IMG/VR virus record: IMGVR_UViG_3300029305_005443
Coordinates: 79,915-143,914 of that record
Reading direction: 5' to 3' (one strand)
Origin: a virus
Lineage: Duplodnaviria; Caudoviricetes
DNA: 64,000 nucleotides
This document shows, in pieces, positions 11,074-64,000 of this stretch. Each line of letters begins with the position of its first letter. The stretch's first letter is position 1. Under the pieces are notes generated by a model. That model searched no databases. It had not been told where the DNA came from and saw only the letters and a list, made by a program, of their open reading frames with translations. The position numbers and the translations under genes were made by a program.

Positions 11074-11496
11074 ATGTCTTGCATTAAGCTCAAAGTTAAA
11101 GACAAATCAATTTATTTTGGTGAAAATTCAGGGTTTTTTGGGTCAACTAGAATTCCAGGTAATATTATGGACAGATTAAATACTAATATTGAGAAAGAAA
11201 ATAATAACCATATTATAACTATTAATTTGTGTGATGATTATGGAATTATTGATGAATATATTAATCCATCGAGTGAAACTTTTAACTTGAGCTATGATAC
11301 ATTAATCTCCATCCTTAATCACATTGGCCAAGTTCTTTATGCACCTTTTAAACACCTTAATTCAAAAACAAGTTCAATTTCAGAAGAAATTAATTTGATT
11401 AGAAACATTAGAACTAATTTTAACATTTTATCTTGGTTAGTTAAATATTTTGAACTTAATAAAAATGATGAAGTAAATATTACATATAATTGTTGA
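11074..11496 (+). CDS. Hypothetical protein
   Basis: ORF track. Confidence 0.65.
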   Translation: MSCIKLKVKDKSIYFGENSGFFGSTRIPGNIMDRLNTNIEKENNNHIITINLCDDYGIIDEYINPSSETFNLSYDTLISILNHIGQVLYAPFKHLNSKTSSISEEINLIRNIRTNFNILSWLVKYFELNKNDEVNITYNC

Positions 11497-11521
11497 CAAA
11501 GCATAAATTATGTAATATAAT
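11493..11521 (+). promoter_or_regulatory. Consensus sigmaA promoter upstream of the suppressor tRNA / RNA ligase unit
   Basis: TTGACA-17nt-TATAAT. Confidence 0.8.
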
Positions 11522-11547: not shown

Positions 11548-11718
11548 ATGACTGAAGTAAAATATAAAGTTGGTGACAAAACATTTTTAGAATATCCAGC
11601 TGCAAAGGAATATTCTTTACAAACTCACAATGAAATAAAAACAGAATACATTGAACATTGGAATTATAATTATAAAGAATATAATGAGGATATGATACAC
11701 ACGGCATCAAAAAATTAA
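11548..11718 (+). CDS. Hypothetical 56-aa protein
   Basis: MTEVKYKVGDKTFLEYPAAKEYS.., downstream of the promoter. Confidence 0.6.
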   Translation: MTEVKYKVGDKTFLEYPAAKEYSLQTHNEIKTEYIEHWNYNYKEYNEDMIHTASKN

Positions 11719-11834
11719 CCTCCTTTCTCAAAGATGCCCAAAAGAAATTTAACCAAGCATTTTCTCTGCTAAATTAAAAATTCATTTTTTGTTCCTTCTT
11801 GTCCTGCAGTTCTTTGTGCTTGTTTACATAATAT

Positions 11835-11922
11835 TCCCCCTTCGCCTAGTGGTAGGGCGCCGGTCTCTAAAACCGTTATACCTTTTGATGGGGTTGCCTG
11901 GGTTCAAATCCCAGAGGGGGTG
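11835..11922 (+). tRNA. Amber suppressor tRNA (anticodon CTA) with long variable arm
   Basis: Acceptor TCCCCCT/AGGGGGT-G, D arm GCCT-AGTGGTA-GGGC, anticodon arm CGGT-CTCTAAA-ACCG (CTA 11867-11869), T arm CTGGG-TTCAAAT-CCCAG. Confidence 0.9.
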
Positions 11923-11927
11923 TTCAA

Positions 11928-12001
11928 TGGGATGTAGCGCAGCAGGTTAGCGCGTCGGTCTTATAAACCGCAGGTCATGGGTTCGAGTCCCATCATCCCT
12001 A
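11928..12001 (+). tRNA. tRNA-Ile(TAT)
   Basis: Cloverleaf; anticodon arm CGGT-CTTATAA-ACCG; T arm ATGGG-TTCGAGT-CCCAT. Confidence 0.85.
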
Positions 12002-12073: not shown

Positions 12074-12104
12074 TAGACAAATCAATTGGTAAAGGGTGCA
12101 AATT

Positions 12105-13325
12105 ATGCTGAATAAAAAGGGAGAAAGAGAGTTAGCATATCTTGTAAAAATAGATGACATTCAGCCAATTGTTGGCTCTGACAACTGCGAGTCCGCTGTT
12201 GTGGGGGCTTGGCATATTATGGTCAAAAAAGGTACATTTAGCGTTGGTGACGTTGCAATCTATTTTGAAATTGATTCTCTTCTTGATATTACTAAACCAG
12301 AGTTTGCTTTTATGGAGAAATATAAAGGCAAAGTAAAGACTCAGCGTTATACTTTCGGCGGTAAAGGAAACTTTATTAGTCAGGGTCTTTTGATGCACCC
12401 GAACGATTTTGGTTGGGTTACTATTATTGATGAGAATGAAATTCAGTATGGTGTTATGACCAATACAAGTAAGCCTGATAGAACCCTCGATAATGAATCG
12501 CGGTTTCTTACAGAACTTCTTGGTGTTAAATATTATGACCCCGCCGATGAACAGAGAAAAGGAACTGGCAAAAAGAAACAGCCTGCTATGCCTAAATTCT
12601 TCTATATGGGAATTGGAAGAAAGATGATGAGAGTAAAATGGCTTAAGCCTATTCTCATTAAGATTTTTGGGAAGAAAGTTAAAGTGACTCCCTGGCCTTA
12701 TTGGGTTGTAAAGACAGATGAGGAGAGGGTTCAGAATATCCCAGATATTATACACCAAGAAGATAAATGGATTGCCACAGAAAAAATTGATGGTTCTTCT
12801 TCTACTTATACTATGATTAGGCACGGTAAGAAATTTGAATTCTATATGTGTTCCAGAAATGTTGTCTTTACAAGTAAAGAAGATAAATGTTATTATGATT
12901 CCAACATTTATGTTGAAATTGCTTCAAAATATCCATTTGAAGAAACATTGAAGAAGTACCTTATCGAAAATAAAGATGTTGATTGGGTTACAATACAGGG
13001 AGAAATCTATGGACAAGGTGTTCAAAAAAGAGATTATTCTATCGACCACAAGGACTTCGTCGCCTTCAATCTAATTGACTCAAAGAGGGGAAGGTGGAAT
13101 TCTTGCGAGGCTAAAGAATGGCTTTCTCAATTTGGAATCCCGTTTGTCCCAATCCTTAATGACTCTTTTGAAATGCCGGATACAGTAGATGAACTTCTTG
13201 AATTCGTAAACGGAAATTCTGTGTTAGATGGAAAGCCAAGAGAAGGATTTGTTTTTAGAAGCAAAGACGGAATTAAGAGTTTCAAAGCTGTTAGTAATGA
13301 GTACCTTTTAAAATATCATTCATAA
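12105..13325 (+). CDS. ATP-dependent RNA ligase, DRB0094/Rnl2-like family
   Basis: N-terminal LAYLVKIDDIQPI..DVAIYFEIDSLL..SQGLL; nucleotidyltransferase motifs TEKIDGSS, QGEIYG, FVAFNL, REGFVFR, SFKAVSNEYLLK; no TAG. Confidence 0.9.
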   Translation: MLNKKGERELAYLVKIDDIQPIVGSDNCESAVVGAWHIMVKKGTFSVGDVAIYFEIDSLLDITKPEFAFMEKYKGKVKTQRYTFGGKGNFISQGLLMHPNDFGWVTIIDENEIQYGVMTNTSKPDRTLDNESRFLTELLGVKYYDPADEQRKGTGKKKQPAMPKFFYMGIGRKMMRVKWLKPILIKIFGKKVKVTPWPYWVVKTDEERVQNIPDIIHQEDKWIATEKIDGSSSTYTMIRHGKKFEFYMCSRNVVFTSKEDKCYYDSNIYVEIASKYPFEETLKKYLIENKDVDWVTIQGEIYGQGVQKRDYSIDHKDFVAFNLIDSKRGRWNSCEAKEWLSQFGIPFVPILNDSFEMPDTVDELLEFVNGNSVLDGKPREGFVFRSKDGIKSFKAVSNEYLLKYHS

Positions 13326-15297: not shown

Positions 15298-15347
15298 TAG
15301 GCACTGACAGCATAATTTTTAGGACTGAAAATCTTAAGTTGTGCCTT
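15298..15347 (+). ncRNA. CAGCA stem-loop RNA E3 with Phe(GAA)-like anticodon loop
   Basis: TAGGCAC-TGA-CAGCAT..TTAGGA-CTGAAAA-TCTTAA..GTGCCTT. Confidence 0.7.
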
Positions 15348-15358
15348 GTTACTTTAAA

Positions 15359-15422
15359 AAGACGCTTGCAGCAATTACTTCTAAACATTTGAGTTGTAAT
15401 CAAAATTGGTTAATGGCGTCTT
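15359..15422 (+). ncRNA. CAGCAA stem-loop RNA E4 with Thr(TGT)-like anticodon loop
   Basis: AAGACGC-TTG-CAGCAA..TTTGA-GTTGTAA-TCAAA..GCGTCTT. Confidence 0.7.
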
Positions 15423-15448
15423 GGTGCGTATTTAGAAAGAGGTTTGAG

Positions 15449-16996
15449 ATGAGTTTTTTAGATAACTTAAAAAATGAAAATAACTTAACATTTACTGAGA
15501 ATGGTGCTGTTGCATTATCTTCTACAATGAATGCTTGTTTGGATGCTTTTGGCTCTCTTGGAGCTATGAAAAACTCCAATGAAAGTGTTATTCTTGATAC
15601 TTTCAAGAAAGCATTTGCAGAAGATAGAAAACTTGCCATGAAGATTCTTTTCTATATGAGGGATGCCCGTGGCGGTCAGGGTATGCGCAGGGTTTTTAGG
15701 ACTATTGTTACTTATCTTGCAAACAATCACCCTGAGTTTGTTGAGAACAATTTTAAGAATTTTGCAGAGTATGGAAGATGGGACGATTTTCTTTGTTTGT
15801 TGGATACTGATCTTAAAGAAAATGTTTTGTCCTATATTAAATCACAACTTCTTGAAGATGTTTGCAACTGGTACGATAATAAGCCAGTTTCTCTTCTTGC
15901 AAAGTGGCTTCCTTCTGAGAATGCATCTTCTCAGAAAACTATTGAAACAGCCAAAACCATTAGGAAATATTTGGGGTGGTCTCCGAGATCCTATCGTAAA
16001 ACCCTCTCTAAGCTTCGCAATTATTTGAATGTTGTTGAAGTTAAAATGTCTTCCAATGAATGGAACAAAATTGATTATGCATCTGTTCCTGGTAAAGCAT
16101 CACTTAATTATTCTGATGCCTTTACAAAACACGATGAAGAAAGATATATTAATTTCCTTATAAATACTTCTTCGCTCAATGCAAATGCACTTTTCCCGGT
16201 AGACATTATACATAAAGTTATTGAATTAAATAATAGAAGAAAATGCTCGAGCAAGGATAGGATCTTGCTTGATAAGATGTGGAAATCTCTTCCAAATTAT
16301 CTTGAAGGCAAAGAAGAAACAGGCATTTGCATGGTAGATACGTCGGGTTCTATGTATGGGACTCCGTATGAAGTGGCTCTTTCTCTTGGCATTTATTGCG
16401 CTGATAAGTGTAAAGGACCTTTTAAGAATCATTTCATCACCTTCAGTGAAAATCCTGAGCTTGTATCCTTGCAAGGGGCAGACCTTGTTGAGAAAGTTTC
16501 TAATATTAGATGCATCAATGCTGGAAACACTAACTTTGAAGCAGCTCTTGATTTAATTCTAGACACTGCTGTGAAGTATGGAACCCCTCAGGAAGATCTT
16601 CCTAGTAAGTTATATGTAATTTCTGATATGCAGTTTGATGTGGCAAGGTGCGAGCGGCATTACACTGGCTGGTCCTTCAAGTATACGCCTACTGAGCCAT
16701 TTATGGAAAAAATGCGTAGAAAATATGAGGCACACGGTTACAAGCTTCCGTCCATTGTATATTGGAATGTTCGCGCATCTGAATGCGGAATGTTTCAGCA
16801 AAAATTCGATGGTGAAGATTGCGCCATGGTTAGTGGGTATTCAGCTTCGTTATTCAAATCCATTATTGAGGGTACCACTTATGAGGAGGTGGTTTCTGAA
16901 GATGGTAAGTCAACTAAGAGAGAAAAAATTGACCCTCTCACTGTTATGTTGACAACCCTTAATAATCCCAGGTACGATAAAGTCTGGGTCGGATAA
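15449..16996 (+). CDS. DUF2828 family protein (TROVE/Ro60-like helical domain + vWA)
   Basis: TENGA, FYMRDARGGQGMRRVF, YGRWDD, AKWLPSE, MIDAS-like VDTSGSM, NTNF, VISDMQFD, IVYWNVR, VSGYS; GAGGT RBS; no TAG. Confidence 0.88.
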   Translation: MSFLDNLKNENNLTFTENGAVALSSTMNACLDAFGSLGAMKNSNESVILDTFKKAFAEDRKLAMKILFYMRDARGGQGMRRVFRTIVTYLANNHPEFVENNFKNFAEYGRWDDFLCLLDTDLKENVLSYIKSQLLEDVCNWYDNKPVSLLAKWLPSENASSQKTIETAKTIRKYLGWSPRSYRKTLSKLRNYLNVVEVKMSSNEWNKIDYASVPGKASLNYSDAFTKHDEERYINFLINTSSLNANALFPVDIIHKVIELNNRRKCSSKDRILLDKMWKSLPNYLEGKEETGICMVDTSGSMYGTPYEVALSLGIYCADKCKGPFKNHFITFSENPELVSLQGADLVEKVSNIRCINAGNTNFEAALDLILDTAVKYGTPQEDLPSKLYVISDMQFDVARCERHYTGWSFKYTPTEPFMEKMRRKYEAHGYKLPSIVYWNVRASECGMFQQKFDGEDCAMVSGYSASLFKSIIEGTTYEEVVSEDGKSTKREKIDPLTVMLTTLNNPRYDKVWVG

Positions 16997-17074: not shown

Positions 17075-17208
17075 TAAACCCTAACAGCAATTCTATTTGA
17101 GGTTATAGTTAACTTTTCTTGTCATTGGTTCGAGTCCAATCTCATATTGCGAGCACGCTCACATTATGAGTAGCACAGTTGGTAGTGCAAAAAGGGAAAA
17201 TGGGTTTA
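17075..17208 (+). ncRNA. Y-RNA (YrlA)-like RNA E6: CAGCAA stem enclosing a circularly permuted tRNA domain
   Basis: TAAACCC-TAA-CAGCAA..CTTTT, T arm ATTGG-TTCGAGT-CCAAT, loop-closed acceptor CTCATA/TATGAG, D arm GCAC-AGTTGGTA-GTGC, AAAAG..GGGTTTA. Confidence 0.85.
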
Positions 17209-17279: not shown

Positions 17280-17353
17280 AGGGGTTTCGGCAAGTGGTTC
17301 AAGCCAACGGACTTTGACTCCGTGACTCAGTAGTTCGAATCTACTAACCCCTG
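17280..17353 (+). tRNA. tRNA-Gln(TTG)
   Basis: AGGGGTT/AACCCCT-G; ACGGA-CTTTGAC-TCCGT. Confidence 0.92.
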
Positions 17354-17394
17354 CTGCACTGTTCGTTCATTGTGCAACCTCCTTTCTTTTTTCT

Positions 17395-17434: not shown

Positions 17435-17463
17435 TTGACAAGTTTAATAAAGTGATTTATAAT
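17435..17463 (+). promoter_or_regulatory. Consensus sigmaA promoter
   Basis: TTGACA-17nt-TATAAT. Confidence 0.8.
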
Positions 17464-63150: not shown

Positions 63151-63447
63151 ATGGCTACAAAGAATCTTGTCGAAGCTTACAAGAATCGTATCAATGTTGC
63201 TGATGCTTATCATGCTCAGACACACAATGGTCAAAAGATGGATTCTTACAAGAAGCTTCTCATTGCTAACTCTCTTAACAATGTTTCTCGTTTTATGAAC
63301 GAGGCTTTTGAGCAATCTGCTGGTACACAACGCGCTGCCCTCGGCGATTATAAGCGTTTCTGCCTTACACTTACCACTCTTGCTCTTCCAAATATGATTG
63401 CTCCAGAAATCGTGCTTACAGTCCCAATGGCTTCAAGAACAGGATAT
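63151..63447 (+). CDS. Major capsid protein (T4 gp23-like), exon 1
   Basis: Follows protease/scaffold; LPNMIAPEIVLTVPMASRTGY resembles gp23 PNLIA..VQPM..PTG; interrupted by intron. Confidence 0.85.
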
Positions 63448-64000
63448 AAAATGTAATGTATCCCTAATATGGTAACATATTAGAAAATAACCTTGTTAAT
63501 TGCTGGAAACTCCGAAAGGACAATCAGCAGCCAAGCCCCAAAACTGGGGAAGGTTCAACGACTATCGAAAGCATAGCATTGAAGAAATATCAATGTGAAG
63601 AAGTGAGTAGAGTAGGGGTTCGCTCCGAAAGACAAGGCATCCAATAAAGGTTAAAACAATGTTGGATGATAATATAGTCTGAACATTATAGAAATATAGT
63701 GAGTTTGGCATTACTAATGAATAGCCTACTTCTGCATCCATAAGTGCAGATTTTATCCAAATCAATTCAATCTTTTATGGAGGATTATATGACAAAAGAA
63801 TAGAAGTGTTCTGAATCGCAATTAGGAAGAGTTGTGATCCACAAGGGTGACTTTGAAAAAAGGGTGCTTCCTTAGGAATTAGATACATATTTCTCTAATG
63901 GATGGTTGACGGGTGTCTCAGAAAAACATCGTAAAAGTAGGTCTAATAGGAAGGGAAGTTGCAATGGAAAAAACAAAATCTTCAAAGAAGATGTCATTAA
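63448..64000 (+). mobile_element. Group I self-splicing intron (3' end beyond window)
   Basis: P1 GGATAT/GTATCC with U.G splice pair; P AATTGCTGGAAAC, Q AATCAGCAG, R GTTCAACGACTA, S AATATAGTCT; P3 CCTTGTT/GACAAGG; P8 CATCCAATA/TGTTGGATG. Confidence 0.92.
63789..64000 (+). CDS. Intron-encoded putative homing endonuclease, 3' partial, 2 TAGs
   Basis: GGAGG RBS; MTKE[TAG]KCSESQLGRVVIHKGDFEKRVLP[TAG]ELDTYFSNGW resembles NUMOD-type DNA-binding modules; nuclease domain not in window. Confidence 0.65.

Follow-up and report, generated by a model that had tools for sequence, protein, structure and literature searches.

Stop codon reassignment has been described in recoded gut phages, for which Borges et al. 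(10.1101/2021.08.26.457843) report TAG to Gln and TGA to Trp only, and state as an open question how the phage suppressor tRNAs are charged in a host that uses the standard code. The phAss-1 paper (PMC10607447) likewise inferred TAG=Gln and left charging open, and a 2025 screen covered 162 phage UAG suppressors (PMC12636597). The first two studies do not mention the variable arm that is the subject of this work, and the third does not discuss it. GlnRS reads G73, G10, U35, G36 and an opened 1:72 pair, and loses up to 10^4-10^5 in kcat when the anticodon is mutated; the determinants of TrpRS are G73, the first pair and C34-C35-A36 (PMC9976931). Moreover, hairpins that copy the cognate anticodon loop occur in the E. 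coli thrS operator and in yeast AspRS mRNA, where they are bound by the synthetase under tRNA identity rules (PMC9976931), and a synthetic pseudo-anticodon placed in the V-arm of a tRNA enhanced charging by an engineered HisRS with an extra anticodon-binding domain (PMC7590224). Apart from this synthetic design, we found no description in the literature searched of a natural tRNA with a pseudo-anticodon arm. Here we analyse a phage tRNA(CUA) which is probably such a molecule, namely a two-anticodon-arm amber suppressor in which one hairpin (hairpin 1) decodes UAG and a second (hairpin 2) mimics the tRNA-Gln anticodon for charging.

The stretch of DNA analysed (the window, 64,000 nt) is the last 64 kb of the 143,914-bp IMG/VR virus record IMGVR_UViG_3300029305_005443, which has an estimated completeness of ~94% and for which matching DNA comes from animal faecal and gut metagenomes. 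Its T4-type portal is nearest to the portals of Streptococcus, Bacillus and Listeria myoviruses, and on the basis of this kinship and of the promoter type the host is probably a member of the Bacillota. ORFs cover 52% of the + strand when TAG is treated as a stop and 76% when it is treated as sense. There are ~240 in-frame TAGs, spread over 89 of the 163 ORFs of the phage genome, every ORF terminator is TAA or TGA, and the tRNA/ligase region is nearly devoid of TAG. In the portal protein, three of the six TAGs fall on columns in which 114-120 of 120 homologues have Q. Some database proteins are themselves called with TAG=Q and therefore the test was redone on codons, using the DNA of five relatives. 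In the codon-verified alignments 31 of the 94 sense codons facing TAG are CAA/CAG, and with substitution profiles derived from those same five-relative alignments the log-likelihood for Gln is +60 nats over the next residue, +67 over Ser and +246 over Trp. The earlier note on this DNA had held that the coding evidence demands Gln, whilst allowing that a different residue might be inserted; the first statement is borne out and the second is disfavoured by the codon alignments, by which TAG=Gln (code 15) is confirmed for this phage.

The window contains an 88-nt tRNA gene with the anticodon CUA (11835-11922, + strand, CCA not encoded), called by ARAGORN at 11834-11923 and scoring 50.8 bits with Rfam RF00005, whose gathering score is 29, so that its identification as a tRNA stands. 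With its CUA anticodon and the in-frame TAGs in conserved genes, it has the features of an amber suppressor tRNA in a TAG-recoded phage. A search of the whole 143,914-bp record, as the earlier note had proposed, recovered it as the sole CTA tRNA. The same record was found to encode no release factor, and none of GlnRS/GluRS, TrpRS/TyrRS, a class-II 2b synthetase or GatB, which leaves the suggestion of a phage synthetase charging this tRNA without a candidate.

The gene lies downstream of a sigma-70/SigA-type promoter (TTGACA-17 nt-TATAAT, 11493-11521, + strand) that agrees with the consensus at 12/12 positions, as had been noted earlier, and no terminator-like site was seen between the two. 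Another perfect consensus promoter is found at 17435-17463. Between the first promoter and the tRNA is a small TAG-free ORF of 56 aa (11548-11718, + strand), without a family match in a Pfam scan. A tRNA-Ile(UAU) (11928-12001, + strand) starts 5 nt downstream of tRNA(CUA) and probably shares its transcript; in the ARAGORN drawing its first pair is likewise UxU. It is followed by a TAG-free RNA ligase gene (12096-13325, + strand; PF09414 with the PHA02142 OB domain), which is given as context only, and beyond this gene lies a further tRNA cluster. In all, ARAGORN finds twelve tRNA genes in the window, and the phage owns a tRNA-Gln(UUG) at 17280-17354. Between a TAG-free DUF2828/DUF7788 (Ro-like) gene (15341-16996) and this tRNA-Gln(UUG) we observed a sub-threshold YrlA (Y RNA-like) match at 17113-17196 (+ strand; 29.9 bits against a gathering score of 69). 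Near the contig end, directly after an ORF at 63151-63456, there is a group I intron (63438-63701, + strand; Rfam RF00028, 85.1 bits); its flanks are not tRNA, which rejects it as a split tRNA, and it probably interrupts a protein gene.

The features listed in the earlier note, namely a Trp-like anticodon arm carrying CTA, a stem-forming variable region of about 21 nt, U1.U72, C2-G71/C3-G70 and G73, can all be read in tRNA(CUA). The acceptor stem is UCCCCCU/AGGGGGU, with a U1xU72 mismatch, C2-G71, C3-G70 and the discriminator G73. U8-C9 is followed by a class-I D-arm (4-bp stem GCCU/GGGC, 7-nt loop AGUGGUA with the usual GG), and the T-arm is CUGGG-UUCAAAU-CCCAG, its loop agreeing with UUCRANY. 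Between the D-arm and the T-arm there are two hairpins. Hairpin 1 (11860-11876, + strand) is the decoding anticodon arm, CCGGU-CUCUAAA-ACCGU, with the anticodon CUA at 11867-11869 and a mismatched top pair, C27xU43. Hairpin 2, the putative pseudo-anticodon arm, lies in the 21-nt variable region (11877-11897, + strand), and its loop UUUUGAU (11883-11889) holds the Gln triplet UUG at 11885-11887. Its stem consists of C11882-G11890, C11881-G11891, A11880xG11892, U11879.G11893 and A11878-U11894, with linkers of 0-1 nt to hairpin 1 and 3 nt to the T-stem, and G15 has its Levitt partner in C11897 (position 48). A bona fide tRNA-Gln(UUG) from another phage has this same 7-mer, UUUUGAU, as its anticodon loop. 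By nearest-neighbour energies the window copy has a slipped register with a 5-nt loop at -30.5 kcal/mol, against -26.8 kcal/mol for the 7-nt loop, and UUG is in the loop either way. Besides the tRNA itself, a related variant (A11880U with U11883C) is present in contigs of four faecal metagenomes, and A11880U turns the AxG mismatch of hairpin 2 into a U.G pair.

It had been stated earlier that the identity elements do not obviously say Gln. A Gln signature is present all the same, in an unexpected place, the loop of hairpin 2, and the nature of that arm had been missed. In a global comparison with 700 phage tRNAs the body showed weak similarity to any isotype, with or without either hairpin. 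Several known classes were considered and rejected. A tRNA-Sec has an 8/5 or 9/4 acceptor/T branch, a 6-bp D-stem and a UCA anticodon, whereas tRNA(CUA) has a 7/5 branch, a 4-bp D-stem and CUA. A tRNA-Pyl, the label given by ARAGORN because of the CUA anticodon alone, has a 3-nt variable loop, a small D-loop and a 6-bp anticodon stem and is accompanied by PylRS and pylBCD; here the variable region is 21 nt, the D-loop standard and the anticodon stem 4 bp plus a mismatch, and the coding evidence says Gln. Nor is the body that of a su7-type tRNA-Trp, which has A1-U72, G2-C71, G3-C70 and a 5-nt variable loop: the Trp-like part of the window tRNA is the anticodon arm only, and its acceptor begins UxU, C-G, C-G.

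The arm is not peculiar to this phage. The exact anticodon arm is present in 74 viral contigs, among which there are ~46 CTA tRNAs of 88-95 nt with a similar long variable region. The same arm pattern searched in the contigs of ~185,000 prokaryote species (one genome each) gave two such tRNAs only, both on short MAG contigs, and the GenBank phage collection gave a single match, phAss-1 (OQ749652.1, 62445-62532), annotated tRNA-Sup-CTA. The carriers are unrelated phages, and six of them other than the window phage have no T4-like portal, so that the portal alignment could not be reused there. Within the family G73 is found in 28/28 members, G10 is constant, the 15-48 pair mostly covaries as G-C or A-U, and C27xU43 is mismatched in 30/30. 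The 1:72 pair is never G-C or C-G (U-A 9, AxC 7, UxU 5, A-U 5). The window tRNA shares these marks, having G73, a non-G-C 1:72, C27xU43 and the class-I D-arm.

To compare the second hairpin across the family we used a gapless alignment of 30 sequences from unrelated phage contigs (A2), in which the variable regions are anchored on the invariant U-G; a MAFFT alignment (A1) mis-registered the arm in the shorter members and was discarded. The core of the arm is conserved as CC-U-Y-U-G-A-A-G, with a 7-nt loop C-U-Y-U-G-A-A in which U35 and G36 are invariant. In this 7-nt-loop register the stem covaries with a score of 0.455, against 0.178 in shuffles, none of 500 of which reached it, and sliding the partners lowered the covariation to 0.236 or less. 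The second stem pair (6:16) is C-G in 16 members, U-A in 4, G-C in 3 and A-U in 1 and is never unpaired, and the closing pair is C-G in 23 and U-A in 1. Three other readings of the arm were rejected: the 5-nt-loop register of the RNAalifold consensus, with covariation no better than shuffles; a shifted 7-nt register, with no covariation beyond shuffles; and a Shine-Dalgarno-like reading of GGAGG, a motif that is not conserved (GGGG in the window) and whose partner strand covaries. In its primary and predicted secondary structure, hairpin 2 thus has the exact format of an anticodon loop, with one of the two Gln anticodons (CUG or UUG) set between U33 and A37. Moreover, by the conserved loop and the covarying stem, hairpin 2 and its Gln triplet are shown to be under selection. 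The window tRNA has the arrangement by which we define the two-arm class, a 7-nt loop N-U-(Gln or Trp anticodon)-A-N on a covarying stem.

Some relatives of these genes depart from the common arrangement. In four contigs (L123, L134, L141 and L147) the copy of the Gln-type tRNA has an insertion between U35 and A36 that ends in G, which is typical of a group I intron, and such genes are missed by tRNA finders. The closest relative by RNA ligase (75% identity), the complete 127.6-kb genome G001 (IMGVR_UViG_3300021400_000012), is without a two-arm tRNA and has instead a short, 73-nt, tRNA-Gln-like CUA suppressor (L169:4173-4245). In phAss-1 (L313:2410-2575) a short CUA tRNA and a Gln-type-hairpin CUA tRNA lie in tandem 6 nt apart, annotated merely as tRNA-TERM and Sup-CTA, and the same tandem occurs in L004, L026, L039, L045, L058 and L059.

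A second family points in the same direction. Phage opal suppressors with a Trp-like anticodon arm carrying UCA are mostly 93-100 nt long, and 22-26 of the 39 long-armed ones have a covarying variable-arm hairpin of 5-7 bp, seen in members that are not tRNA-Sec-like. The loop of this hairpin is N-U-C-C-A-A-N (CUCCAAA, GUCCAAA, UUCCAAC), which is the Trp anticodon CCA in anticodon-loop format. Covariation is 0.864 against 0.225 in shuffles, the stems being nearly all different between members and yet paired, and we regard the UCA family as a case independent of the Gln-type CUA family. One member is carried by a portal relative of the window phage, G002 (IMGVR_UViG_3300026549_000075; L081, tRNA at L170:4611-4706), which has a UCA tRNA with a UUCCAAC hairpin and in which 8 of the 13 in-frame TGAs aligned to window-phage proteins face Trp. 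ARAGORN mislabels this tRNA as tRNA-SeC.

The two features are combined differently in the 146-kb genome G006 (IMGVR_UViG_3300028805_000058; L290-L297), whose single CUA tRNA (L074:7800-7892) has a hairpin with the loop GUCCAAA. Of the TAGs in its endolysin, three are opposite W (118/120, 120/120 and 111/120 homologues) and a fourth is opposite W or F. In several other proteins, codon alignments place TGG opposite TAG in 22 of 72 cases and CAA/CAG in none. Judged by these alignments G006 reads TAG as Trp, a reassignment that we did not find reported. A pattern scan for further CUA tRNAs with a CCA hairpin returned G006 alone, its 15 other matches not being tRNAs.

The amino acid can therefore be compared with the triplet in three phages: CUA with a UUG hairpin and TAG=Gln in the window phage, UCA with a CCA hairpin and TGA=Trp in G002, and CUA with a CCA hairpin and TAG=Trp in G006. 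The same CUA anticodon thus goes with Gln in one phage and Trp in another, and it is the second hairpin that accords with the outcome. When pooled, 31 loci with the Gln-type hairpin have TAG positions that align best with Q (92/321; W 3), and at 26 loci with a UCA tRNA and a CCA hairpin the sense residue that most often faces TGA is W. Taken together, these alignments show that across phages the inserted amino acid tracks the triplet of hairpin 2 and not the decoding anticodon, with one phage, G006, providing the TAG=Trp contrast in sequence comparison.

When the 17 nt of hairpin 1 are removed in silico, ARAGORN calls a canonical tRNA-Gln(CUG/UUG) in 27 of the 31 members, with the window tRNA called as a 73-nt tRNA-Gln(ttg), and calls tRNA-Trp(CCA) in 17 UCA members and in the G006 tRNA. 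Either hairpin completes a canonical cloverleaf and the molecule therefore holds two overlapping cloverleaves. The loops of hairpins 1 and 2 are usually one base apart, as in CUCUAAA/CUCUGAA for CUA and CUUCAAA/CUCCAAA for UCA, which points to an origin by duplication of the anticodon arm.

Other phage tRNAs with unusual arms were seen during these searches. The minus strand of L007 (~2200-2380 in reverse-complement coordinates) holds the 3' part of a tRNA-like sequence. A CUCUAAA loop comes first, the next element is a hairpin of 5 bp with the loop CUCUCAA, in which CUC is the Glu anticodon, and a T-arm and A73-CCA complete it; the sequence is uncalled by ARAGORN and may be a suppressor aimed at GluRS. 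Four other CUA tRNAs (L016:4091-4178, L018:7318-7407, and those in L017 and L034) differ in identity by their appearance, one carrying the alanine signature of G3.U70 plus A73, another a Ser-type class II body and the remaining two class II bodies of the Leu/Tyr type, and they hint at further meanings of TAG. Long variable arms are also found on class-I sense tRNAs of phages, namely an 88-nt Asn-GUU (L074:4455-4542), a 92-nt Ile-UAU (L042:2437-2528) and an 86-nt His-GUG (L057:527-612), with no obvious anticodon copies in their loops.

The mechanism that we propose would run as follows. The tRNA(CUA) would be transcribed from the consensus early promoter, and on the ribosome hairpin 1 would pair with UAG, so that the ~240 in-frame TAGs would be translated as glutamine. 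GlnRS and TrpRS need anticodon bases, one of which is destroyed in an anticodon that reads a stop codon, and the simplest reading is that hairpin 2 restores the missing signal. For Gln, the identity base G36 is lost in CUA; hairpin 2, a conserved mimic of the tRNA-Gln anticodon stem-loop (U33, UUG, A37) in the place of the variable arm, would present G36 together with U35 to the host enzyme that charges glutamine. In a host that possesses GlnRS this would be the enzyme, and in other hosts a non-discriminating GluRS followed by GatCAB would take its place. Signals at the acceptor end would be supplied by G73 and the unpaired 1:72; in the family, G73 (28/28) and the non-G-C 1:72 coincide with GlnRS acceptor determinants. 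In the standard L-shape the loop of a variable arm is far from the anticodon-binding domain of a synthetase, and a rearrangement must therefore be assumed. We suggest a possible arm swap, in which the anticodon position is taken by a stacked hairpin 2 on the synthetase and by hairpin 1 on the ribosome, and for which the invariant C27xU43 atop hairpin 1 is a possible hinge. A role of hairpin 2 as an identity element for host Gln-charging enzymes is most likely on the present comparisons; that a synthetase reads it, which enzyme does so and the arm swap are inferred.

As to the enzyme, a true GlnRS is present in each of three rumen/gut Clostridia checked. Contigs with the Gln-type hairpin are present in two MAGs; both have GatB, and one of them is without a GlnRS match over the cut-off. 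The earlier note had offered that GlnRS tolerates this tRNA; this comes close to the likely answer, but what appears to be at work is the addition of a pseudo-anticodon and not tolerance. Our reading is tempered by the slipped register that the energies favour in the window copy, by the distance that a rearrangement has to bridge and by the single phage behind the TAG=Trp contrast. Further observations weigh against it as well. The acceptor identities differ between the Gln and Trp types and so the hairpin may not be the sole, or even the main, determinant, and G001, a close relative, manages with its short tRNA-Gln-like CUA tRNA.

Among the alternatives, two are uncontradicted by the data, although neither explains charging. 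Firstly, the partner of hairpin 2 may not be a synthetase: it could be a T-box leader or another tRNA-Gln or tRNA-Trp sensor, a modification enzyme, or a host anticodon nuclease for which the hairpin would be a sponge, with the neighbouring RNA ligase serving repair. The tRNA cluster also contains the RNA ligase and Ro-like genes, which would suit this view; phage tRNAs are known to counter tRNA-cleaving defences, and Firmicute hosts use T-boxes. However, a decoy needs no match to the amino acid of the stop codon, and yet that match is seen in three systems. Moreover, the searches recovered the hairpin on suppressor tRNAs only, and it has no consistently co-occurring protein gene. We found no Gln-type variable-arm motif outside CUA tRNAs and their intron-split versions, and hairpin 2 was not found as a free hairpin or on sense tRNAs. 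No conserved protein partner lies beside the two-arm tRNA across 42 loci, where the neighbours include a 112-aa ORF in 4 (two of which are overlapping stretches of one record), a Ro-like gene in 2 and a ligase in 1. We give this explanation a small but real chance.

Secondly, both hairpins could act on the ribosome, so that a single Gln-charged tRNA would use hairpin 2 for CAA/CAG and hairpin 1 for UAG. A canonical cloverleaf is possible with either hairpin, the loop of hairpin 2 has all the features of a working anticodon loop (7 nt, U33, A37), and agreement between the hairpin triplet and the amino acid is expected here too. Yet the phage already owns a tRNA-Gln(UUG), a hairpin bulging at position 26 is without precedent on the ribosome, and the way in which the CUA tRNA acquires Gln is left unexplained. 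Such double decoding is, in our judgement, unlikely, and it and the use of hairpin 2 as a charging signal are not mutually exclusive.

The remaining alternatives fare worse. The arm could be a device independent of its sequence, either a steric anti-determinant against TrpRS or other enzymes on a Trp-like scaffold, or a stabiliser against RF1. The anticodon arm of hairpin 1 is indeed Trp-like, TrpRS and TyrRS approach from the variable-loop side according to established structural knowledge, and ribosomes tolerate class II arms. But a steric block has no need of a covarying stem or of a U-G kept invariant in the 7-nt loop, and gives no reason for CCA precisely in the tRNAs of Trp-inserting phages, which also bear the arm; we hold it to be improbable. 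A neutral relic of a tandem duplication of the anticodon arm, with the second copy now functionless, would fit the single-base difference between the hairpin loops in most members, but an invariant loop and compensatory turnover of the stem in unrelated phages are signs of purifying selection and not of decay, which makes a relic very improbable. Charging by SerRS or another enzyme with insertion of a residue other than Gln is scarcely credible: the long variable region and G73, which had been taken earlier for a SerRS signature, are accompanied by a class-I D-arm whose 4-bp stem and 7-nt loop are unlike the phage's own tRNA-Ser genes and exclude a class II tRNA-Ser, TAG positions do not align with Ser, which fits them 67 nats less well than Gln, three portal TAGs fall on near-invariant Q, and the genome has no other CUA tRNA.

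If hairpin 2 is indeed a charging signal, nature would have solved the charging question simply, by giving the suppressor a second, cognate anticodon loop, and this would amount to a natural separation of tRNA identity from decoding, a principle so far only engineered (PMC7590224). We incline, on balance, towards the wider proposal that phages evolved modular tRNAs with identity and decoding on two separate anticodon arms. Stop codons could then be reassigned without a dedicated synthetase, and exchanging either arm would re-programme the code, the reassignments concerned being TAG to Gln, TGA to Trp and, in G006, TAG to Trp. The hairpin triplet would also provide a sequence rule that predicts the meaning of a reassigned stop codon, as TAG=Trp in G006 illustrates, and such arms may serve as compact parts for genetic-code expansion. 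In practice, tRNA finders mislabel two-arm tRNA genes as Pyl, SeC or 'TERM'. The contributions of this work are the Trp-type family, the natural comparison of three phages with TAG=Trp among the outcomes, and the tests of the register and of arm deletion.

Lastly, we compare the window tRNA with the systems that it resembles. Its phage is like the recoded gut phages of Borges et al. (10.1101/2021.08.26.457843) and phAss-1 (PMC10607447) in its standard-code early region, TAG-rich late genes, phage CUA tRNA and lack of a phage synthetase, whereas G006, in reading TAG as Trp, is unlike the Borges et al. set. Long hairpin-forming variable regions are shared with the class II tRNAs (Ser, Leu and bacterial Tyr) and tRNA-Sec, and G73 is common to Ser and Sec; however, class II tRNAs have a 3-bp D-stem, a large D-loop and arm loops that are not anticodon-like, and Sec is set apart by its 8/5 branch and 6-bp D-stem. 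Suppressors of the supE type (tRNA-Gln with CUA, including the short phage versions in G001 and phAss-1) also insert Gln at UAG, but keep the full tRNA-Gln body and are without an extra arm. E. coli su7 (supU) is similar in its Trp-like anticodon arm changed from CCA to CUA, G73, weak 1:72 and Gln at UAG, and differs in having a 5-nt variable loop, in relying on U35 alone and in being mischarged (PMC9976931). The window tRNA adds to this a whole Gln-anticodon hairpin, and has C2-G71/C3-G70 instead of G-C. Unlike the thrS operator and AspRS mRNA mimics, which are regulatory elements of mRNAs, it places the anticodon copy within a decoding tRNA. The synthetic design (PMC7590224) likewise equips an amber suppressor with an anticodon-arm mimic, placed in the variable arm so as to recruit the anticodon-binding domain of a synthetase. 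That molecule is engineered, on a 9/3 allo-tRNA chassis and with HisRS fused to the extra binding domain, whereas the window tRNA is natural, is built on a 7/5 class-I body and is presumably recognised by host enzymes in their unmodified form.
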